Shown here: piece after piece, positions 3,265 through 37,537 of the stretch
How the letters are laid out: every line of letters begins with the position of its first letter
Numbering within the stretch: the first letter of the stretch is position 1
Source of the DNA: Actinomycetota bacterium
GTDB taxonomy: Bacteria; Actinomycetota; Actinomycetes; Mycobacteriales; SCTD01
Direction: 5' to 3'
Assembly: GCA_033851845.1 (NCBI GenBank)
Contig: JAWWOH010000077.1
Location: forward strand, 1 to 37,616
DNA: 37,616 bases
Notes under the pieces: model-generated
Databases searched by the model: none
Told to the model about the DNA's origin: nothing
What the model saw: only the letters and a program-made list of their open reading frames with translations
Translations under genes and position numbers: made by a program

Positions 3265-3337
3265 GCCGGGTTAGCTCAGTTGGCAGAGCACCGCTCTTGT
3301 AAAGCGGATGTCGTCGGTTCGATCCCGACACCCGGCT
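3265..3337 (+). tRNA. tRNA-Thr (anticodon UGU)
   Basis: Cloverleaf folded by hand. Acceptor GCCGGGT/ACCCGGC; D-arm GCTC-AGTTGGCA-GAGC; anticodon stem CCGCT/AGCGG with loop CTTGTAA (anticodon TGT); T-arm GTCGG-TTCGATC-CCGAC; discriminator T. CCA is not encoded. The antisense ORF shows the typical tRNA-shadow peptide. Confidence 0.9.
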
Positions 3338-3355
3338 CTGCCTCAAATGTATTGG

Positions 3356-7831: not shown

Positions 7832-9165
7832 GCGTCGTTCCCGAGACGCTACGCGAAGGCACCCGATGGCCTGAACCTCGCCTACCAGGTCATCGGAGGA
7901 GGTCCCGTCGACCTCGTCTTCATCTCGGAATGGACGACGCACATCGAGGCGCAGTGGGACTACCCGCCGCTGGCACGCTTCCTGGACCGGCTCGCCAGCT
8001 TCAGCCGGCTGATCATGTTCGACAAGCGCGGCATGGGCCTTTCCGACCCCTTACCCCTTGACCACGTCCCGACGCTGGAACGCGGCGTCGAGGACATCTC
8101 CGTTGTGCTGGACGAGATCGAGTCCTCCCAGGCCTCCCTGTTCGCGACCGCCGAGCGGGTCCGATGAGCATGGTCTTCGCCGCGACACACCCGAGCAGGG
8201 TGCGCGCCCTCGTACTCGCCGATACCTTCGCACGGCTCGCTGCCGCACCGGACTACCCGCAAGGCGTCTCCGTCGAGCAGCAGCGCGCCTACCTGGCCAC
8301 CGTCGAGCGCGACTGGGGAACAGGGGGCGTAGTGGAGCACTTCGCGCCCAGCCGCCAGGACGACACCGCCTTTCGGACCTGGCTCGGACGCTACCGACGG
8401 ATGTCGGCCAGCCCCGGCATGGGCCGTCGGATGCAGGAGCGCTTCTACGACACTGACGTCCGCGAGGTCCTCCCCATCATTGCGGTCCCAACCCTGGTGC
8501 TGCACCACGTCGGGAACGCGTTCGTCCCAGCCAGCGCCGGGCGCTACGTGGCAGAAGCTATCCCCGGCTCCCAGTTCGTCGAGCTCGACGGAGACGAGCA
8601 CCTGTTCTACGCGGGACCGACCGACCAGATGCTTGACGAAGTGGAGCAGTTCCTCATCGGAAGCCGGCAGCCGCACCGCACCAACCGAGTCCTCGCCACG
8701 GTGCTGTTCACCGACATCGTCGACTCAACGGGAACAGCAGGACGCGTTGGCGACGGTGCCTGGCGCGACCTCCTCGACAGCCACGACACCCACGCCCGTC
8801 GTCAGCTCGCGCGCTTCCGAGGCCGAGAGATCAGCAGCACAGGTGATGGTTTCCTCGCGACCTTCGACGCCCCGGCTCCCGCAATCCAAGCCGCCGCTGC
8901 CATTCGCGAAGGAGCCCGTCGACTCGGCCTCGACACCCGCGCCGGGGTACACGCCGGAGAGGTCGAACTACGCGCCACCGGCATCGGCGGCGTTGCCGTG
9001 CACCTCGCCCACCGCATCCTCAGCGCAGCATCCCCCGGCGAAGTCCTCGTGTCCTCAACCATCCGGGATCTCGTGACCGGGTCCTCGCTGCGCTTCCTCA
9101 ACCGCGGCCACCAGACTCTCAAGGGCTTTGACGAGCCGTGGCACCTGTACGCCGTAGACCTGTAA
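7828..9165 (+). pseudogene. LipJ-like alpha/beta-hydrolase-fold/class III adenylyl (nucleotidyl) cyclase fusion, disrupted by two compensating frameshifts
   Basis: ATG 7828 (frame 1) gives MSVVPET.... The alpha/beta-hydrolase segment RYAKAPDGLNLAYQVIGGGPVDLVFISEW...FDKRGMGLSDP is in frame 2 (about 7844-8167, stop 8165-8167). Frame 1 resumes at 8164 with MSMVFAATHPSRVRALVLAD... and the cyclase domain (VLFTDIVDSTG...GDGFLATFD...HAGEVE...GGVAVHLAHRI). This is the architecture of mycobacterial Rv1900c/LipJ. Frame 2 has no start codon, and frame 1 hits a stop at 8059-8061. Confidence 0.55.
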
Positions 9166-28230: not shown

Positions 28231-30345
28231 CTAGCGGCTGCTGTCGTAGACCGCTCTCGCTCGCTGCAGGTCGGGTGAGAGAGGTACGCCGTCGGCGGCC
28301 ATCGCTTCGGCAAGACCGCCGACGCTGCCCGGGTCGCTCGCTGCGGCTGTCCAGCCGGCGACGGGTTCACCGCCGACCACAGGTGATACGAGCGGCTGCT
28401 CGGGGGCACGTCGTGCCTGCGCGCGGATCGCGGCCGCCGTCGCGGACGGCGACGGTGCCGGCGACGACGACGAGGGCGCGGGGTCGGCGAGCACGAGGTC
28501 GGCCTGACCTGGGTCGTCACCCGGCAGGACGACGAGGGCGCTGCCCACGCCACGTTCGAACCCGTCCGAGGGCCGGTTGACCCGTAGGCCGTTGACCCAC
28601 ATCGTGCTGGAGCCGCCGCCGTCGAGGTTGATGGCGTTCTGCGCACCGAGCGACTGCATGAGGTTGGCCAGCTCCTGCAGCGTCATCCCGACGCTGTAGC
28701 CGGGCTGCCGACCGTCGACGACGACGAGCAGCATCCGGCCGTCAGCGGTGACGCCGACAGCTGTGCGCGGCTGCCGCTCGAAGAACGAGCTGTCGCCGAA
28801 AAGGTCCTGGTACTGCTGGGCGCCGTTCGCGATGAGCACCGGGTTGCCGCCGAGCACGTCGACGGCGCCTGGGAAGCCCAAGGTCTGGATGACCTGAGCC
28901 GGCTGCCCCGGCCGCAGGCTCTGCAGGAAGGTGCCGCTGGCGTTGAAGTGGGAGCCGTCGAGAATGACGCCGCTCGTCGGTACCAGCGCCGCGTCGCCAC
29001 CGCAGCGCGGCGGTCCGGTCACAGTCATCGACGTCTCGACGCCGCCGTCGGGATGCACGACCGGGCTCGAGGCGGAGGCAAGTCCGGCATAGCAGTCGTT
29101 GTTCGGTGGCGTCTCGAGGTTGGCGCCGGCTGCGGTGAAGGCGGCAACGGAGTCGCCGCTCGCCGGGCCGGAGTTCCACCGCGGGATCTCGATGCTGACC
29201 GTCCCGGTGTCGGACTGCGTCGACAGCACCGTCTCGACGTCGGGGAAGCCCATGGACACGCGCGTCCCGGTCGCGTCGAGCCCCAGGGCGCGGCCGAGCA
29301 GCTGAGGCGTCTGCTCGAGCCGCCCGTCCTGCGCGAACGCGTGCACGGGGCGACCGCTCGACAGGAAGTAGTCGCCGTTGATCGCGAGCACGGCACCGGC
29401 GTTGCGCGCCATCGTCGTCGTGAGCTGCGTGCCGCGCAGCCGGTCGCCGGACAGCACGGTGTCGGGGCTGGAGGAGGCGGTCAGGTCGATGGTCGCGATG
29501 TGCTCGGTGAACGGACCGGCGCCGTCGTGCACCACGCGGTGAGTGACTCCGGGGGCCAGGCCCGGAGTACGGCGTACCAGCGGGGTGTCACCAGCGCGAC
29601 CGAACGTGGTCGTCTGGTAGCGACCGGAGAAGTTGCTCTCGCGGAAGAACCAGCTGCCGCTGCGGAAGACGCCGGGCGAGTCGCGGCCGTCGTGGTCCCA
29701 GTCGCCCGCAAACCGCCGGTCGCCGGGGAGGCCGAAGTCGAACTGCCTGTTCGTCTGTCCGCTGCTCGACGCGTCGCGCTGGAACCAGGTCTTGTTCCGT
29801 ACGACGCCGATGTCGGTGCGGCCGTTGCCGTCCCAGTCACCCACGACCGGCAGGTCGGTGCCGAGGCCGTAGGTGAAGGTGCGGGTCGGGCCGGCGTTGC
29901 TGTTGTCGCGCAGGTACCAGTGGCCCTTGCGGAACAGCCCGAGGGAGTCGGTGCCGTCGCCGTTCCAGTCGCCGAGGAGCGGGATGTCGCCCTTCTGCCC
30001 GAAGCGGACCTCGGCGTACGGCCCGCCCTGGCTGTCGCGGATCAGCCAGATGCCGTCCCGGAACAGGCTCAGCGAGCCGGTGCCGTCGCCGTCGGTGTCG
30101 CCCGCGACCGGTGTCCAGCCGGGTGTCTCCTCGACGTACGACGTGTAGGGCCCGCCGTCGAGGTCGGGCTGGAGGTACCACGTGTCGCCGCGCCGGATCG
30201 TCAGCCGGTCGTAGCCGAGCTCGGCCCCCGGAGCGGCTGCGGCGTGCGCGACCGCGGCGACTGCAGGGCGCGTCGGGACGAGCGGAACGAGCAGCGCACC
30301 GAGCAGGCTGAGTACGGCCGCGGCGCGCGGGATCGAGGGGCGCAC
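28231..30345 (-). CDS. secreted protein: signal peptide + 4 FG-GAP/VCBS-like repeats + C-terminal phosphodiester glycosidase (NAGPA-like, DUF2233) domain
   Basis: The signal peptide is MRPSIPRAAAVLSLLGALLVPLVPTRPAVAAVA. Four repeats of the pattern [GD]DW[DN]GDG.D..G[LV]FR.G.W are present. The C-terminus has INGDYF...NLDGGGSSTMWVNG, typical of phosphodiester glycosidase family proteins. Confidence 0.75.
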   Translation of the reverse strand: MRPSIPRAAAVLSLLGALLVPLVPTRPAVAAVAHAAAAPGAELGYDRLTIRRGDTWYLQPDLDGGPYTSYVEETPGWTPVAGDTDGDGTGSLSLFRDGIWLIRDSQGGPYAEVRFGQKGDIPLLGDWNGDGTDSLGLFRKGHWYLRDNSNAGPTRTFTYGLGTDLPVVGDWDGNGRTDIGVVRNKTWFQRDASSSGQTNRQFDFGLPGDRRFAGDWDHDGRDSPGVFRSGSWFFRESNFSGRYQTTTFGRAGDTPLVRRTPGLAPGVTHRVVHDGAGPFTEHIATIDLTASSSPDTVLSGDRLRGTQLTTTMARNAGAVLAINGDYFLSSGRPVHAFAQDGRLEQTPQLLGRALGLDATGTRVSMGFPDVETVLSTQSDTGTVSIEIPRWNSGPASGDSVAAFTAAGANLETPPNNDCYAGLASASSPVVHPDGGVETSMTVTGPPRCGGDAALVPTSGVILDGSHFNASGTFLQSLRPGQPAQVIQTLGFPGAVDVLGGNPVLIANGAQQYQDLFGDSSFFERQPRTAVGVTADGRMLLVVVDGRQPGYSVGMTLQELANLMQSLGAQNAINLDGGGSSTMWVNGLRVNRPSDGFERGVGSALVVLPGDDPGQADLVLADPAPSSSSPAPSPSATAAAIRAQARRAPEQPLVSPVVGGEPVAGWTAAASDPGSVGGLAEAMAADGVPLSPDLQRARAVYDSSR

Positions 30346-30522
30346 GAGGGTCCTTCTGGGGCTCCGAGGGGGTCGCCCGACTGTCGCACGATGGCGGCGT
30401 GGAAACCGTCAAACAGGACAGATGTCGCCCGATCGTGTCGGTGCCTGTCGCCGCGACCGGGCGGTCCCGCTGTGCTTTCATGGGGATCGAACTACACGGT
30501 TGTCGTTTGCGCGAGGAGGACC

Positions 30523-30822
30523 ATGGACAGCGCCGCCGTTCCGGCCCCCGGGGCGCCCGCCGCCGCGACCGGCTCGCTGTCCGAGCGCGAGTGCGAGATC
30601 CTGGCCTTCGAGCGGCAGTGGTGGAAGTACGCCGGCGCCAAGGAGACGGCGATCCGCGACCTGTTCGATCTCAGCGCGACGCGCTACTACCAGACCCTGA
30701 ACGCGCTGATCGACCGGCCCGAGGCGCTGGTGCACGACCCGATGCTGGTCAAGCGGCTCCGTCGGCTGCGCACGACGCGCCAGCGCACCCGCTCCGCGCG
30801 GCGTCTCGGCATCGACGCCTGA
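30523..30822 (+). CDS. DUF3263 domain protein
   Basis: LSERECEILAFERQWWKYAGAKETAIRDLFDLSATRYYQTLNALIDRPEALVHDPMLVKRLRRLR. A GAGGAGGA Shine-Dalgarno lies 3 nt upstream of ATG 30523. The much longer ORF-track ORF is a shadow extension. Confidence 0.65.
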   Translation: MDSAAVPAPGAPAAATGSLSERECEILAFERQWWKYAGAKETAIRDLFDLSATRYYQTLNALIDRPEALVHDPMLVKRLRRLRTTRQRTRSARRLGIDA

Positions 30823-30829
30823 CGTCGCG

Positions 30830-31705
30830 TTGCCCGACGACACGGCGCCTGACGATCCGGGGCCTGACCGGCCGGTGCCCGCTGCGCCGGGTTCGCCCGG
30901 GGGCGACTGGCAGCTGCCCCAGGTCGACCCGGCCGACGGCCTGATCGGCTGGTCGCCGGAGCCGGCCCTGCCCGAGGCGGTACCGCCTGCGCCTCCACCG
31001 GCGCCGCCCCGCTTGCCGGCGACGGCCGCGGTCGGCCACCCCAACCCCTTCGCCGGAGTCGGGGAGCCGTTGATATCGGCTGCGGCCGAGGAGCCGCCGT
31101 CCGCCGAGGAGCTGTCCGCCGAGGAACCGCCGTCCGCCGGCGTCCTGCCCGTTCCGCGCCGGTCGTCGCTGCCGGGTGGGCCGGTGTCTCCGGTCCGGGC
31201 GCTCGCGGGTGCGGCCGTCGCAGTGGCCGGTGTCCTGCTCGGCATCGGCGCGTTGCTCTGGGCGACGGATGCGCCGAGCGGCAGCCCCGCGCTGCAGCAG
31301 ACGCAGGCGCAGAGCTCCGACGTCTCGCCGTCGCCGTCGCCGCTCCCGAGCCCATCGGTCGTGCCGACGGCCGTCGCGCCCGCACCTGTGGCGACGACGG
31401 CCGCTGCGACGCCGTCAGCCCAGGCCACGCCGAAGCTCGCGCTCACCGTCCTCAACAACTCCAACGTCAACCAGCTCGCGCACCGGGCGGCGGCGAAGTT
31501 CCGCGCGAGGGGCTGGCCGATCAAGCTCGAGGGAGCGTTCCGCGGTCGCATCCCCGTGACGACCGTCTACTACGCACCCGGCCAGCAGGCGTCCGCGCAG
31601 CTGCTGCAGAAGGAGTTCCCCGCCATCCAGCGGGTGCGGCCGCGGTTCTCGACGCTGCCGGGCTCCGGGCTCACGGTCGTGCTCACCCGCGACTACCCGG
31701 CCTAG
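30830..31705 (+). CDS. LytR_C (LytR cell-envelope-related transcriptional attenuator C-terminal) domain membrane protein with Pro-rich N-terminus
   Basis: TTG start taken from the ORF track. It has a Pro/Ala-rich N-terminus and a transmembrane helix (LAGAAVAVAGVLLGIGALLWA). The C-terminus LTVLNNSNVNQLAHRAAAKFRARGW...TTVYYAPGQQASAQLLQKEFP is the LytR_C signature. Confidence 0.65.
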   Translation: MPDDTAPDDPGPDRPVPAAPGSPGGDWQLPQVDPADGLIGWSPEPALPEAVPPAPPPAPPRLPATAAVGHPNPFAGVGEPLISAAAEEPPSAEELSAEEPPSAGVLPVPRRSSLPGGPVSPVRALAGAAVAVAGVLLGIGALLWATDAPSGSPALQQTQAQSSDVSPSPSPLPSPSVVPTAVAPAPVATTAAATPSAQATPKLALTVLNNSNVNQLAHRAAAKFRARGWPIKLEGAFRGRIPVTTVYYAPGQQASAQLLQKEFPAIQRVRPRFSTLPGSGLTVVLTRDYPA

Positions 31706-31722
31706 TCGCCGGTGGCGGTGTA

Positions 31723-32502
31723 GTGCTCGAGCCGCGCACCGCGGAGGGGCGGGCCGGCCTCGAGTCGCTGCGGGCCGACCCGGCGAGAGGGCTGGTCGCA
31801 CTCGACTACGACGGCACGCTCGCCCCGATCGTGTCCCGACCGCAGGACGCCGTACCCGCCGAGGGTGCCGTCGAGGTGCTCACCGCCCTCGCCGGCAAGG
31901 TCGGACGGCTGGCCCTGTTGACGGGACGGCCGGCGCAGGTCGTGGTGGACCTCGCCGGCTTGGCGTCCGTGCCGGGGCTGGTCGTCCTCGGGCAGTACGG
32001 CGTCGAGCGCTGGGCGGATGGCCGGCTCACCGCGGCACCGCCGGCTGCCGGCATCGCGGCGGCGCGGGCGGCACTTCCTGTGCTCGTCGAGTGGATCGGT
32101 GCCGAGATCGAGGACAAGGGGCTGTCTCTCGTCGTGCACACCCGCAACGCGCAGCCCGGCGCGCAGGAGCGATTGGCCGAACCCATCGGCGAACTGGCCC
32201 GCCGCGTCGGACTCGAGGTCCATCACGGCCGGCGGGTGCTCGAGCTGCGGCCGCCCGGGTTCGACAAGCACGGTGCTCTGATGGCGGTCGCGGATCCCCG
32301 GCCGGGCGCGGTGCTCTTCGCGGGCGACGACATCGGGGACGCGCGGGCCTTCGACGCGGTCGACGGGCTGCGCGCGAGCGGCGTGCCCGGTGTCACCGTC
32401 TTCAGCGACAGCGACGAAGGCCCCGCGTCGCTACGGTCACGGGCGGACGTCGTCGTCGACGGCCCCGTCGGAGTCGTCGCCCTGCTGCGCACGCTGTTGT
32501 AG
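31723..32502 (+). CDS. otsB: trehalose-6-phosphate phosphatase (HAD-IIB)
   Basis: LDYDGTLAPIV (HAD motif I) and GDDIGDARAF (motif IV), with OtsB-like length. GTG start. Confidence 0.8.
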   Translation: MLEPRTAEGRAGLESLRADPARGLVALDYDGTLAPIVSRPQDAVPAEGAVEVLTALAGKVGRLALLTGRPAQVVVDLAGLASVPGLVVLGQYGVERWADGRLTAAPPAAGIAAARAALPVLVEWIGAEIEDKGLSLVVHTRNAQPGAQERLAEPIGELARRVGLEVHHGRRVLELRPPGFDKHGALMAVADPRPGAVLFAGDDIGDARAFDAVDGLRASGVPGVTVFSDSDEGPASLRSRADVVVDGPVGVVALLRTLL

Positions 32503-32527
32503 TCGCCCGTTATATGCGGACGTCGTA

Positions 32528-34692
32528 CTACTCGCGGCGGTCGGCGAAGGCTTGCAGCGAGGCGACCTGCGCGGGATCGAGTGACGGCTTCACCTTGGCG
32601 AGCGCTGCTTCGAGATGCGCCGCGGTCACCGTTGTCGCCGACATGGACTCGCGCATCGCACCCAGCGCTGCCTCGCGAATGAGTGCAGCGCAGTCGGCGG
32701 CGGAGTAGCCGTCGGTCTTCGCGCCCACCACAGCGAGGTCGACAGCGGCGTCCAGCGGCACCGATCTCGCCGCCGCCTTGAGGATCTGCGCCCGCGCGTC
32801 TGCATCCGGCGGTGGCACGAACACCAACCGCTCGAGCCGGCCGGGGCGCAGCAGGGCGGGGTCGATCAGGTCGGGCCGGTTGGTGGCGCCGATGACCACG
32901 ACGTCACGCAGGCTCTCGACTCCGTCCAGCTCGGTCAGCAGCGCGGCGACGACCCGGTCCGTCGTACCGCCGTCCGTCGACTGGCCGCGGACGGGCGCGA
33001 GCGCGTCGACCTCGTCGAGGAACACCAGGGTGGGCGCGGCTTGCCGCGCGCGCCGGAACAGCTCGCGCACCGCGCGCTCGGACTCCCCGACCCACTTGCT
33101 CAGCAGCTCCGCGCCCTTGACCGACAGCACGTTGCATTGGCCGGAGCCGGCGATCGCCTTGACCAGGAAGGTCTTCCCGCACCCCGGCGGGCCGTAGAGC
33201 AGCAGCCCGCGGGGAGGTGCGACGCCGAGGCGGGTGAACGTGTCGGGGTACTGGAGCGGCCACAGCACCGCCTCGGTCACGGCTTCCTTCACCTCGGTCA
33301 TGTCGCCGACGTCGTCCAGGGAGACCTGCGCGAGGTCGAGCGTCTCCCCGCCCATCGCGGTCGGCCGAACGACCTCGAGGGCCGCGTCGAGGTCGGCCTT
33401 CGAGACGGTCGGTGACGTGACATCGCGCTGTCGCGCCGCGGCGCGCAGCCCCGCCTCCCGCACGAGCGCGATGACGTCGGCCGCGACGAAGCCGGGTGTC
33501 CGGCCGGCCACGTCGTCGAGCGAGACGTCCCCGTCGAGCGGCACGCCATGTGTCATGGCTCCGAGCAGGCGGCGGCGCTGCGCCCGGTCCGGCAGCGGGA
33601 TCGACAGCTCGTGGTCGAGCGTGCCGGGCGCCCGCAGCTCGGGTGCGACCGACTCAGGTCGCGACGTCGTACAGACAACGGCGACCGTGCCGGCCGCGAT
33701 GACGTCGCGCACTGCTGTCAGGAAGACGGGGACCAGGGGCGACGGGTTGTCGCGACTCGCGAGTGCGTCGACGTCCTCGAGCAGTACGACGGCAGGCGAC
33801 GTGTGCGCCGCCTCCGACAGCAACGCGGTGATCTGCTCAGCTGCCTTGGTCGGGTCGAGCGACGCGAGCTCGGGTGCCCATGCGCGCATGAGTCGCGCGC
33901 CGAGCCCGGTCGACACCGCCTCGACCAGCGCGGCCTTCCCCGATCCGGCCGGGCCGGTGACCAGCACGCCCATGCCGGGTGTGGTCCCGAGGCGCTCGAG
34001 CAGGTCGCGGTGGTGGAAGCCCAGGTCGAGCCACTCGCGAAGGGACGCAATCTGCGACTCGAGACCCGGCAGGTCCGCGACGGTCAGCGGCTGCGACGAC
34101 GTCGGCACCACCATCGGCGTCGCGCTGCCGGTCGTCGTCGTACCGCCCTGCCACCCGACGACCGTCGCCATCGTGACGAGCGCCGGTCCGGCCGGTGAGA
34201 CGTCGGTGACGGTCAGCAGCATCGACGTCCAGGCAGCTCCCAGCCGGGCGGCCAGGCTCTTGCGGGTTCGCACCACGTCGAACGCACCGAGTGGCGCCAG
34301 GTCCTGCGGCAGCAGCGACGCGTTGTCCCCGGCGGTCAGCACCTTGCCCAGCAGTGCGGTGCGCAGAACCGTGGGGTCGACCACCGAGGTCACATTCGCG
34401 TCGCCGGCACAGACGACGCTCACCGCCGGCACCGTCCTCGCCGCGGCGACATCGATGACGGTGCCGTCTGTCACGCCGAGGTTGCCGAGGACGAGGTCGT
34501 CGCAGAGCACGACGTGGGGGTCACCGCCGGGCGGTGCGATGGCGGCGAGTGCGCCCGTCTTGCGTCGCCCGGTGAGGAGCACCGTGTCCCACACCGACAG
34601 CCCGAGCCCGGCGAAGACAGTGGGATGAAGGCGGACGATCCCGCGCCGTGCGTCGAGGGCCGACGGGTGCAGCACGGCCGTCAGCGAGAGCA
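32528..34692 (-). CDS. two-domain AAA+ ATPase, Cdc48/VCP-like (N-domain + degenerate D1 + canonical D2)
   Basis: D2 has Walker A LLYGPPGCGKTFLV, Walker B TLVFLDEVDAL and SRH GATNRPDLIDPALLRPGRLER. D1 is divergent: GPAGSGKAAL, VVLLEDVD, TTSRPES. I propose start GTG 34692 (rc cac 34690-34692), 4 nt after the otsA stop. The ORF-track 5' extension to 35203 would overlap otsA by ~500 bp and is Arg/Gly low complexity. Confidence 0.75.
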
Positions 34693-34695
34693 CGG

Positions 34696-36150
34696 TTACG
34701 GCTCCAGCGCAGCGAGCTGGTCGGCGAGCCAGCGCGAGGGCGGGAACGCCGTCGCGGCTTCGGCCAGCCGCTTCGACCTCTCCGCCCGTTCGGAGCGGTC
34801 CATGAGCAATGCGTCGTGCAGCGCCTGCGCGGTCTGCGAGACGTCGTACGGGTTGACCAGCAGCGCGTCGGCGCCGAGGTCGTCGGCCGCGCCGGCCTCG
34901 CGCGACAGCACGAGCCCGACGCCGTTGCCGGAAAGCACCGGGCCTTCCTTGGCGACCAGGTTCATGCCGTCCCGCAAGGGGTTCACGACCAGGACGTCGG
35001 CCAGCTGCATCGCGGCGAGCGACCTCGGGTAGTCGTCCTTGACCTCGAGGTGCACCGGCACCCACCCAGGCGCCGCGAACTCCTCGTTGACCTCGCGGGC
35101 GACGCGTTGCACAGCGCCGGTGTACTCCCGGTACTCCGGCAGGTCGTGCCGCGACGGGTAGGCGAAGGCCAGGTGCACGACCCGCTCGCGGTGCTCCGGC
35201 CACCGGCGCAGCAGCTCGCGGTAGGCCTCCAGGCCGCGCACGATGTTCTTCGACAGCTCGGTGCGGTCGATGCGCAGGATCAGCTGCCGGTCACCGGCGA
35301 GATCGCGGATCGCCGGCAGCTTCGACGTCACGTCGCTCTCGGCTGCGCGGGCGGTCAGCTCGGCACCGTCGACGCCGAGCGGGTGCACGTCGACGCGGGT
35401 CACGCGGCCGTCGTACGAGACCGCCTTTCCGTCGTACGACGCACCGAGCACGTCGACGCAGCACCGGGCGAACGCATCCGCCCAGCGCGGCGAGTTGAAG
35501 CCGACCGCATCGGCGCCGAGCATCCCGGTGAGCAGGTCGACGGCGATCACGTCCGGCAGCAGCCGGAAGTACTCGGGTGGCGCCCACGGCGTGTGGCTGA
35601 AGTGCGAGATCCGCAGGTCGGGTCGCCTTGCCCGCAGCTGCCGCGGAGTGAGCGACAGGTGGTAGTCCTGCACGAGGACGGCGGCTCCCGGCGCGGCTTC
35701 CTGCGCAAGTGCCTCGGCAAAGGCGTCGTCGTACGACGTGTACGCCTCCCACTCGCGGCGACTGCGCTCCCCGAAGGCAGGACTGCTCGCCGTGGCGTAG
35801 AGCAGGTGGCTGACGAACCACAGCATCGAGTTGGCGACGGCGTTGTAGGCGCGGTCGAAGGTGACCGGGTCGATGTCGAGCATCCGCACCGGGGTGGGGG
35901 ACACGTCGACGGCGAGCCGCCCGCCGTTGAAGTGCGCTGCCCGTCGGTCGGCGTCCGACAGCGCCGCGCACACCCACACGGTGCCGTTGGGCGCTGCTGC
36001 GTGGCTGATCGCCGACACGAGACCGCCGCCGCCGCGCCGGGCCGATCCGTCCTCGGCGAACGACACCGGGCCACGGTTGGACGCCAGCAGGAGGTCGGCA
36101 CGCACGTCGCCGAACCTAGCCGTAGACTGGTCCGCACAACTGAACAGCAC
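34696..36150 (-). CDS. otsA: alpha,alpha-trehalose-phosphate synthase (GT20)
   Basis: LLLASNRGPV and HDYHL-equivalent QDYHLSL are present, with GT20 collinearity throughout. 484 aa with a TAA stop. Confidence 0.85.
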   Translation of the reverse strand: MLFSCADQSTARFGDVRADLLLASNRGPVSFAEDGSARRGGGGLVSAISHAAAPNGTVWVCAALSDADRRAAHFNGGRLAVDVSPTPVRMLDIDPVTFDRAYNAVANSMLWFVSHLLYATASSPAFGERSRREWEAYTSYDDAFAEALAQEAAPGAAVLVQDYHLSLTPRQLRARRPDLRISHFSHTPWAPPEYFRLLPDVIAVDLLTGMLGADAVGFNSPRWADAFARCCVDVLGASYDGKAVSYDGRVTRVDVHPLGVDGAELTARAAESDVTSKLPAIRDLAGDRQLILRIDRTELSKNIVRGLEAYRELLRRWPEHRERVVHLAFAYPSRHDLPEYREYTGAVQRVAREVNEEFAAPGWVPVHLEVKDDYPRSLAAMQLADVLVVNPLRDGMNLVAKEGPVLSGNGVGLVLSREAGAADDLGADALLVNPYDVSQTAQALHDALLMDRSERAERSKRLAEAATAFPPSRWLADQLAALEP

Positions 36151-36274
36151 TCATCCAGAGGGGCACCAGGGACACGGCCCGATGACGCCCCGGCAACCAG
36201 TGCAGGTCTTCCCGACCTGACCACCAGGTGCCAACTCCGTCCCGCGCGTCCGCGTGGGGAAGATGAGGAGATCA

Positions 36275-37537
36275 ATGACAGTCAGCGCATCAACTCTCAC
36301 GGGGTCCCCGGCCCGTGCCCTCAAGTGCCGTGAATGCGGCACCGAGGTCCCGCTCAGCCCAGTCCACGTCTGTTTGGAGTGCTTCGCGCCGCTCGAGGTC
36401 GCGTACGACGAGGACGCGCTGCGTCGCGTCACGCGCGAGTCGATCGCGGCCGGCCCGCAGACGATCTGGAGGTACGCCGGCCTGCTGCCCGCCGGTCAGG
36501 ACGAGGCGACGCGCGTCGACATCGGGGCGGGCATGACCCGACTGCGCCCGGCGTCCAACCTGGCCCGCGCGCTCGGCATGAAGACGCTGTGGGTCAAGGA
36601 CGACAGCGGCAACCCGACCCACTCCTTCAAGGACCGCGTCGTGTCGGTCGCGCTCTCGGCGGCTCGCGCCTTCGGGTTCACGACGGTCGCCTGCGCGTCG
36701 ACCGGCAACCTCGCCAACTCCGTCGCCGCGCATGCCGCTCGCAACGGCCTGCGCGCAGTCGTCTTCATCCCCGACGACCTCGAGCAGGGCAAGGTCGTGC
36801 AGACCGCTGTCTACGGGCAGACGCTCGTCGCGGTGAACGGCACGTACGACGACGTCAACCGGCTCTGCAGCGAGATCGCCGAGAACGAGGACTGGGCCTT
36901 CGTCAACGTCAACGTCCGGCCGTACTACGCCGAAGGCTCGAAGACCCTCGGCTACGAGGTGGCCGAGCAGCTCGGCTGGCGACTGCCCGAGCAGGTCATC
37001 ATCCCGATGGCCTCCGGGTCGTTGCTGACGAAGGTGGACAAGGCCTTCGGGGAGCTCGGTCGGCTCGGACTCGTGGAAGCGACGCCGTACAAGGTGTTCG
37101 GTGCGCAGAGCAGCGGGTGCTCGCCGATCGCGACGGCGTACGAGAACGGCTGGGACACGGTCAAGCCGGTGCGACCGACCGGCATCGCGAAGTCGCTCGG
37201 CATCGGCAACCCCGCGGATGGGCCGTATGCGCTCGACACGGTTCGGCGGACGGGCGGCGCGATGGGCCACGTCGGTGACAAGGAGATCGTCGAGGGGATC
37301 CGGCTGCTCGCCGAGACCGAGGGCCTGTTTGCGGAGACCGCCGGCGGGGTGACGGTCGCGACGCTGCGGCAGCTGCTCTCGGCCGGTGCCGTCGACCCCG
37401 AGGCCGAGACGGTGCTCTACAACACCGGCGACGGGCTCAAGACGCTCGACGCCGTAGCCGGCGAGGTCGGGCCGACCGCGACGATCGCGCCGTCGTACAG
37501 CGCCTTCGTGAAGAGCGGCCTCGGCACGGACCAGTAG
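36275..37537 (+). CDS. thrC: threonine synthase (PLP-dependent) with N-terminal zinc-ribbon
   Basis: CRECG...CLEC ribbon. The PLP-lysine motif is HSFKDR. Fold-type II PLP domain. I chose start ATG 36275 with GAGGAG 5 nt upstream. The ORF opens at 36254. Confidence 0.85.
   Translation: MTVSASTLTGSPARALKCRECGTEVPLSPVHVCLECFAPLEVAYDEDALRRVTRESIAAGPQTIWRYAGLLPAGQDEATRVDIGAGMTRLRPASNLARALGMKTLWVKDDSGNPTHSFKDRVVSVALSAARAFGFTTVACASTGNLANSVAAHAARNGLRAVVFIPDDLEQGKVVQTAVYGQTLVAVNGTYDDVNRLCSEIAENEDWAFVNVNVRPYYAEGSKTLGYEVAEQLGWRLPEQVIIPMASGSLLTKVDKAFGELGRLGLVEATPYKVFGAQSSGCSPIATAYENGWDTVKPVRPTGIAKSLGIGNPADGPYALDTVRRTGGAMGHVGDKEIVEGIRLLAETEGLFAETAGGVTVATLRQLLSAGAVDPEAETVLYNTGDGLKTLDAVAGEVGPTATIAPSYSAFVKSGLGTDQ

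Follow-up and report, generated by a model that had tools for sequence, protein, structure and literature searches.

The window, by which we mean the whole analyzed stretch of 37,616 nucleotides (nt) of contig JAWWOH010000077.1 from an Actinomycetota bacterium (assembly GCA_033851845.1), carries on its minus strand, between positions 36150 and 32528, two consecutive open reading frames (ORFs), otsA and then cpa. The first encodes a trehalose-6-phosphate synthase, and the second a Cdc48-like AAA ATPase with a domain at its N terminus and a pair of ATPase domains, D1 and D2. Downstream, cpa converges on otsB, as an earlier note on this DNA had stated, with a 25-nt spacer; upstream of otsA, a divergent thrC-like gene is led by an S-adenosylmethionine (SAM) riboswitch that bounds the otsA promoter region (Table 1). 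The same note, made from the sequence alone, had proposed that otsA and the ATPase gene are translationally coupled, and had raised the idea of a functional link between a protein unfoldase and trehalose metabolism.

Table 1. Positions of the genes, motifs and other features of the window (aa, amino acids).
Feature	Position	Strand	Details
otsA, GT20 trehalose-6-phosphate synthase, Streptomyces/GDP-glucose type (by similarity)	34696..36105	-	PF00982 and PDB 5LQD; longest ORF to 36150
Predicted otsA -10 box, TAGGTT (TANNNT)	36113..36118	-	7 nt before GTG 36105
otsA-cpa junction	34691..34705	-	GGAG 34705-34702, 8 nt, GTG 34693-34691; otsA TAA 34698-34696 within the spacer
cpa, 721-aa N-D1-D2 AAA ATPase	32528..34693	-	Msm0858 (5e7p) match; Pfam; 15-sequence alignment A1
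D1 Walker A, GPAGSGKA	33932..33955	-	aa 247-254; Lys kept, Ser/Thr replaced by Ala; D2 counterpart GPPGCGKT
D1 Walker B, LLEDVD	33767..33784	-	aa 304-309; D-E replaced by E-D; D2 counterpart FLDEVD
D1 sensor-1, TTSRPE			N replaced by S at aa 344; D2 counterpart ATNRPD
D1 Arg-finger segment, RAPGT			both Arg fingers gone (A355, T358); D2 counterpart RPGR
D2 Walker A, GPPGCGKT	33170..33193	-	aa 501-508; canonical, invariant in A1
D2 Walker B, FLDEVD	33005..33022	-	aa 558-563; canonical; then sensor-1 N605, Arg fingers R616 and R619
otsB, trehalose-6-phosphate phosphatase, HAD domain only	31723..32502	+	TIGR00685, 117.5 bits (cut-off 68.05); PF02358
Solo LytR_C gene	30830 or 30875 to 31705	+	Pfam; co-directional with otsB
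DUF3263 gene	30523-30822	+	Pfam
SAM-I riboswitch	36148..36269	+	RF00162, 66.8 bits
thrC-like gene	about 36275-37537	+	divergent from otsA
704-aa protein with NAGPA phosphodiester glycosidase domain	28231-30345	-	signal-peptide-like N terminus
ORF joining alpha/beta-hydrolase segment and adenylate/guanylate cyclase catalytic domain	8164-9165	+	weak Pfam matches
tRNA-Thr, anticodon TGT	3265-3338	+	ARAGORN and Rfam

On the evidence of its sequence, the ATPase is orthologous to Msm0858/Rv0435c over its full length, and belongs to the known actinobacterial Cdc48-like family Cpa. Its residues 2-720 align with residues 22-745 of Msm0858 (PDB 5e7p; E 3e-204), and Pfam assigns it a CDC48_N domain (35.6 bits; cut-off 35.1) together with two copies each of AAA and AAA_lid_3. 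Among the matches listed, it is about 57-68% identical to the proteins of Micromonosporaceae, and 49-54% identical to those of Mycobacterium, Nocardia and related loci; identity falls to 28-42% for Cdc48 homologs from archaea and other non-actinobacterial sources. In a neighbor-joining distance tree, which carries no support values, the window protein is placed beside Micromonosporaceae Cpa and inside actinobacterial Cpa, and its score on the NCBIfam model for canonical CDC48, TIGR01243 (510.8 bits), is below the cut-off for that subfamily (802.65). Nucleotide-dependent hexamer formation and ATPase activity should be expected by analogy with the published family (PMC6017811). The proteasome genes prcA and prcB were not found within the 37.6-kb window.

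The motifs of D1 were assessed by aligning it to D2 of the same protein, and their conservation was followed over 15 sequences (alignment A1). D2 is canonical throughout, and D1 departs from it at each of the motifs listed in Table 1; in A1, the Walker A lysine K253 and the Walker B aspartate D307 of D1 are invariant, with A, S or G at position 254. A canonical D2 and a degenerate D1 without the sensor Asn and Arg finger are what the Cpa family displays, and the earlier description of the protein as Rv0435c-type, with a degenerate D1 and an intact D2, is therefore borne out. The degeneration of D1 is not new, however, and has already been published for Cpa/Msm0858: the motifs of D1 show 'mild degeneration' according to Ziemski et al., who place the sensor Asn and Arg finger in D2 only (PMC6017811), and a 2017 review reports Walker substitutions in Msm0858 D1 (PMC5515868). 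Because the P-loop Lys is kept but the Walker A Thr, the catalytic Glu, the sensor-1 Asn and the Arg fingers are gone, we infer that the role of D1 is weak or mainly nucleotide-binding.

The maximal cpa ORF is 891 aa long and is open to position 35203, and the earlier note had allowed that the true start might be an upstream ATG, with a real overlap with otsA. There is no in-frame ATG 5' of 34693, the only in-frame candidates being GTG 35203 and GTG 35065, and the GC content at third codon positions (GC3), which is 0.893 in the body of cpa, is 0.447 in the extension (34694-35203) when read in the cpa frame and 0.946 when read in the otsA frame. Homologs are mostly 715-725 aa long and cover 97-100% of the 721-aa query (among the 120 homologs listed), and 13 of the 14 homologs in A1 start in one column, with an N-terminal pattern of M/V-L-x-L-T-A in which L2, T5 and A6 are nearly invariant. 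An upstream start overlapping otsA is rejected on the GC3, the missing ATG and the conservation of the N terminus.

The otsA product matches PF00982 (E 7e-98, 328.9 bits) and is a GT20 trehalose-6-phosphate synthase by full-length similarity to characterized OtsA; it scores 310 on TIGR02400, under the cut-off of 565. Among solved structures it matches best the OtsA of Streptomyces venezuelae, which prefers GDP-glucose (PDB 5LQD; 500 bits, E 6e-149), with mycobacterial OtsA (5JIJ) scoring 184 bits, and the donor type is assigned by this similarity. We consider GTG 36105 a more likely start than 36150 because it yields a 469-aa OtsA, in line with the 466-471 aa of neighboring otsA products in relatives, because a TAGGTT hexamer lies 7 nt upstream, and because the 15-codon extension to 36150 has a GC3 of 0.73 (0.921 for otsA) and abuts the opposite-strand SAM riboswitch. 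TANNNT at such a spacing is the preferred SigA -10 element in Mycobacterium smegmatis, where leaderless transcripts are common (PMC6448022). The TAGGTT box predicts a leaderless otsA, or otsA-cpa, mRNA, and a TANNNT hexamer 6-7 nt 5' of the otsA GTG is also present in five related loci described below (L172, L171, L081, L170 and L169).

Reading along the minus strand, the junction of the two genes is CTG GAG CCG TAA CC GTG CTC TCG (...CTGGAGCCG TAA CC GTG CTC...), with 2 nt between the otsA stop codon and the cpa GTG. A GGAG motif, which is part of the CTG-GAG codons for Leu-Glu of OtsA, lies 8 nt 5' of the GTG. The tight stop-start arrangement that the earlier note described is thus present, although its start coordinate (34692) and its 4-nt gap are replaced by 34693 and 2 nt. 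The two genes are on the same strand, the Shine-Dalgarno-like GGAG is inside otsA, a scan of the window found no terminator-like site between them, and no TANNNT hexamer occurs in the 45 nt 5' of the cpa GTG. A scan of positions 30300-36400 for the sigma-70 consensus found no sites, and is uninformative for an actinobacterium of 72% GC. With this stop-start junction, the GGAG and the missing -10 box, co-transcription of otsA and cpa and coupled translation are the most likely arrangement in the window, and to that extent the co-expression proposed earlier stands for this genome.

We compared gene order around cpa in a clade of at least 14 loci, including the window, from uncultured Mycobacteriales/'Frankiales' metagenome-assembled genomes and metagenome contigs, with Cpa proteins 65-93% identical. 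Gene content was taken from Pfam-labelled gene calls or tblastn; a GC3-based gene caller over-extended some ORFs and missed the window's otsA, and was used only for grouping flanking families, which were then checked with Pfam. Eight of the 14 loci have otsA directly before cpa and otsB convergent after it: the window, L172 (93% Cpa identity), L173 (86%), L171 (85%), L081 (83%), L084 (72%), L170 (70%) and L001 (65%). In L169 (71%), the order is thrC, otsA, opposite-strand NicO and TPR genes, cpa, PNPOx and otsB, such that otsA is split off from cpa by two opposite-strand genes. The remaining five lack otsA; L166 (75%) has otsB only, and L165 (79%), L082 (70%), L167 (69%) and L168 (69%) have neither gene, otsA being missing even in L165, where Cpa is 79% identical. 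The constant frame of the clade is GroEL, thrC-like (-), cpa (+), LytR_C (-) and DUF3263 (-), with genes for glutamate dehydrogenase and an Mce protein generally coming next.

Two of the otsA-adjacent loci have peculiarities of their own. The gene call for otsA in L170 (5553-6970) consists of two ORFs of 279 and 198 aa that overlap, directly before an intact cpa; either a frameshift has made otsA a pseudogene, or the assembly is in error. In L172 (109-867), a weakly matching GDPD-family gene lies on the same strand 10 nt 5' of otsA, where the window has the divergent riboswitch and thrC-like gene.

Across the clade, cpa appears normally to have a promoter of its own. A TANNNT hexamer beginning at -12 or -13 relative to the cpa GTG, with 6-7 nt left between the two, is present in 11 of the 14 loci: TAGCCT in L081, L171 and L173, TAGGCT in L170, TACCCT in L084, TACGCT in L001 and L167, TAAGGT in L169, TAGGGT in L165 and L166, and TACTTT in L082. 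The background frequency of TANNNT in these sequences is 0.00029 per position, and the bases around the box are not conserved. The box is found in six of the eight loci with otsA directly upstream, and is missing from L168, L172 and the window. We therefore infer that cpa normally has an independent promoter yielding a leaderless mRNA, even behind otsA. The TAGCCT box of L081, L171 and L173 takes its first three bases from the otsA stop codon, TAG.

Comparison of the junctions offers an account of the missing boxes in the window and L172. The junction in these two loci falls short of that in L171, L081 and L173 by 7-8 nt, and reads ...CTGGAGCCG-TAA-CC-GTG as compared with ...CTGGAGCCC-TAG-CCTTCGGGC-GTG in L171; the cpa box is absent because of this shorter spacer. 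The same shortening brings GGAG to 8 nt before the cpa GTG.

The pairing of otsA with cpa does not extend to the other lineages sampled. Collection scans with the Cpa alignment (YGPPGCGK and similar) listed mostly archaeal Cdc48, and the usable matches comprised at least about 36 actinobacterial genome loci and at least about 8 metagenome loci. Among the matches listed, otsA-cpa adjacency is absent from the approximately 35 other actinobacterial genome loci recovered, L001 excepted, and neither otsA nor otsB occurs within 8 kb of cpa in Micromonosporaceae, Mycobacterium, Nocardia or Pseudonocardia loci; otsA-cpa is accordingly not a cluster conserved across independent lineages in that set. 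Loci of the Mycobacterium, Nocardia and Aldersonia type have the order SDR-moeA-psd-pssA-cpa. Micromonosporaceae loci are of two types, one with thrC, an ABC-2 permease and a peptidase-S15/ABC-ATPase fusion divergent from cpa, and the other with a conservon-like set (NIT histidine kinase through ATP_bind_1) before cpa. The window has otsA upstream of cpa and contains no psd or pssA, and so is not of the psd-pssA-cpa operon type. What is shared more broadly is the downstream side: not only the clade but also loci of Micromonosporaceae, Pseudonocardia, Mycobacterium and Nocardia have DUF3263, often with a solo LytR_C gene, convergent 3' of cpa (again among the matches listed).

Because loci with both otsA and otsB are spread over several subclades of the neighbor-joining tree, including the basal one, the simplest history would be an ancestral order thrC-otsA-cpa-otsB-LytR_C followed by repeated losses. 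The stable backbone, as judged from these gene orders, is the SAM riboswitch with the thrC-like gene, cpa, and the convergent LytR_C-DUF3263 pair, the DUF3263/LytR_C part being the most widely conserved. The earlier note had asked for adjacency to be checked across actinobacteria, and had named as its counter-case an ATPase gene with its own promoter and unrelated neighbors in most genomes. The latter is largely what we find, with predicted boxes in 11 of 14 loci and adjacency that is patchy in one clade, although the window and L172 have no box.

These observations are, we think, rather likely to reflect a recent, lineage-specific operon fusion within inherited synteny, and not a dedicated mechanism connecting Cpa with trehalose. 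In most relatives, cpa would have its own TANNNT -10 box and a leaderless mRNA. It lies inside an old syntenic block in which, in this clade, otsA and otsB occupy two slots flanking cpa; the two genes appear dispensable there, having been lost singly or together, with other genes inserted between them and cpa. In the window and L172, shortening of the spacer by 7-8 nt would have removed cpa's -10 box and left TAA-CC-GTG, with the OtsA CTG-GAG codons serving as a GGAG Shine-Dalgarno sequence. The window cpa would then depend for its transcription on the otsA promoter (TAGGTT, leaderless start at 36105), and for its translation on Shine-Dalgarno-led, possibly coupled, initiation. Co-expression of otsA and cpa is thus probably real in this genome, and a shared transcript, arising through a small deletion of recent date, is probably confined to the window genome and L172, the relative nearest to it.

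Several points weigh against a recent fusion as the whole explanation. First, the -10 boxes and leaderless starts are predictions from sequence. Second, the 14 clade loci are related and not independent, and Frankia, Geodermatophilus and Streptomyces are outside the sampled lineages. Third, the otsA-cpa gap is 2-37 nt in all eight adjacent loci, down to 65% Cpa identity, which may point to selection for co-expression. Fourth, trehalose is a stress solute that matters under starvation, and a regulon shared with Cpa is not implausible. In keeping with this, the Cpa knockout has a phenotype under carbon starvation (PMC6017811). The D1 assignment also has a counterpoint, in that the 2017 review reports ATPase activity for both domains of Msm0858 (PMC5515868), and D1 may not be inactive.

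Some of these points favor a functional partnership, in which Cpa is co-expressed with OtsA and OtsB in one stress or starvation programme, controlling, for example, OtsA assembly or turnover, or remodelling the proteome as trehalose builds up. The short gaps and the starvation phenotype fit such a role, as do the otsB gene that is a convergent neighbor of cpa in nine clade loci and the loss of cpa's own box in the window, which ties its expression to otsA. Nonetheless, we regard a partnership as unlikely, because the pairing is patchy in one clade and absent elsewhere, lies inside a syntenic block and involves a cpa promoter that is usually independent. Specifically, cpa persists without otsA in five of 14 loci, otsA is split in L170 and is parted from cpa by opposite-strand genes in L169, six of the eight adjacent loci retain a predicted cpa promoter, and otsA and otsB are not near cpa in the four other groups noted above; the whole block is syntenic, so descent explains the adjacency. 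The earlier note was right that a link between the unfoldase and trehalose had not been described: our literature search found none between Cpa/Rv0435c and trehalose or otsA, one co-mention elsewhere being incidental, and the words trehalose and otsA do not occur in PMC6017811. The link itself, however, is not supported by the genomic evidence.

Somewhat less probable still is a connection with the cell envelope, in which Cpa would act in quality control of envelope biogenesis, its gene lying repeatedly beside those for enzymes that provide components of the membrane or envelope (psd-pssA in mycobacteria, otsA here), and always near a VirR-like LytR_C gene. In M. smegmatis, psd-pssA-cpa is co-transcribed (PMC6017811), and we could confirm the gene order in Mycobacterium-type loci; lineages of Mycobacteriales share the convergence of DUF3263 and LytR_C on cpa, and VirR acts in cell-wall remodelling (PMC11832169). 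However, Micromonosporaceae have an ABC transporter or a conservon upstream of cpa, function is not shown by long-range synteny alone, and cell size and morphology are unchanged in the Cpa knockout, where the proteomic hotspot is ribosomal proteins (PMC6017811). A further point against an envelope role is that OtsA is a soluble enzyme of general trehalose synthesis. We hold it to be just as doubtful that Cpa participates in a trehalose- or envelope-linked stress programme, remodelling or degrading neighboring biosynthetic enzymes or complexes during starvation or desiccation; were this so, the window lineage would have hard-wired the link by losing cpa's own promoter. Finally, a mis-assigned start, with cpa beginning upstream within otsA or at the second in-frame GTG (34675, 6 codons downstream) and hence without stop-start coupling, is permitted by the open frame and the second GTG, but is very improbable given the GC3 and missing upstream ATG described above, the conserved residues 2-6 (L-x-L-T-A) at N termini that coincide, and a Msm0858 alignment that begins at query residue 2.

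A recent fusion within inherited synteny thus remains our preferred reading, and it has two implications. We know of no physiological substrates or adaptors of Cpa, and a gene robustly associated with it across genomes would offer a useful lead; otsA, on this analysis, is not one. The window may nonetheless serve as a small example of how a deletion of 7-8 nt could turn a leaderless, separately promoted gene into a Shine-Dalgarno-led distal gene of an operon.

The genes downstream of cpa form a co-directional set on the plus strand (30523-32502), in which DUF3263, LytR_C and otsB are separated by gaps of 7-52 nt and 18 nt, and in L171, L172 and L173, LytR_C and otsB overlap or abut. The otsB product is a trehalose-6-phosphate phosphatase, with a TIGR00685 score above the cut-off. 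No terminator or hairpin was detected in the 25-nt spacer between cpa and otsB (scan; fold z = -0.04). The DUF3263-LytR_C pair matches Rv0430/VirR (Rv0431) in position, and VirR is a solo LytR_C protein that acts in cell-wall remodelling (PMC11832169). As otsB starts only 18 nt 3' of the LytR_C gene, it may form the distal end of an operon with DUF3263 and LytR_C, in which case expression of the trehalose-phosphate phosphatase would be tied to a cell-wall remodelling factor.

On the other side, the SAM-I riboswitch precedes the thrC-like gene in all eight related loci scanned, Micromonosporaceae included, and SAM control suggests a role for the gene in methionine/homocysteine rather than threonine synthesis. 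The encoded 'threonine synthase', which we take to be perhaps a MetM-like ThrC paralogue, has an N-terminal zinc-ribbon-like CxxC...CxxC segment.

Among the other features of the window, the 704-aa protein has repeated 'GDWDGDG...LFR...W' motifs in addition to its signal-peptide-like N terminus and its C-terminal NAGPA domain, and its gene is found at the same position in L084, L165, L171 and L173 and is absent in other relatives. The ORF with hydrolase and cyclase segments sits in a stretch of lower GC content (0.65-0.68), where the GC3-based caller predicted no gene.

Members of the published Cpa family bind the 20S proteasome and aid adaptation to starvation (PMC6017811). The window protein resembles Msm0858/Rv0435c in its full-length N-D1-D2 architecture, its canonical D2 and its degenerate D1 without sensor Asn and Arg fingers, and in a C terminus (...FADRRE) without an HbYX motif, and the DUF3263/LytR_C genes downstream occupy the position of Rv0430/Rv0431. 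It differs in being only about 52% identical, in lacking the roughly 20-residue mycobacterial N-terminal extension, and in following otsA, outside a psd-pssA-cpa operon. The window fits, as a non-psd-pssA locus, the 'third branch' of Cpa recognized by Ziemski et al., whose context is undescribed in that text (PMC6017811); the context of such third-branch-like genes can now be described as the riboswitch with the thrC-like gene, cpa, and convergent LytR_C-DUF3263. As in the mycobacterial psd-pssA-cpa operon (Ziemski et al. 2018), cpa closes a short run of genes on one strand, behind genes for biosynthetic enzymes. However, the partner in the window is trehalose-6-phosphate synthase and not phosphatidylethanolamine synthesis, co-transcription is deduced, and most otsA-cpa relatives keep a separate predicted cpa promoter. 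The archaeal and eukaryotic Cdc48/VAT/p97 proteins share the CDC48_N domain, the tandem AAA domains and an unfoldase/segregase mechanism, but in canonical Cdc48/p97 the Walker motifs of D1 are intact, unlike those of the window protein.

The closest parallel to the trehalose genes is in Streptomyces coelicolor, where one unrelated gene lies between otsA and otsB (SCO4290/4289/4288), as in the window. The intervening gene there, SCO4289, is annotated as a secreted protein and not an AAA ATPase, the comparison being one of annotation and not of orientation or flanks. A literature search on SCO4286-4296 synteny found nothing; thrC (SCO4293) and groEL2 (SCO4296) may also adjoin otsA in S. coelicolor. 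The separation of otsA from otsB by one gene in S. coelicolor is in keeping with a long-standing presence of both genes in the region, as opposed to their recruitment to cpa.

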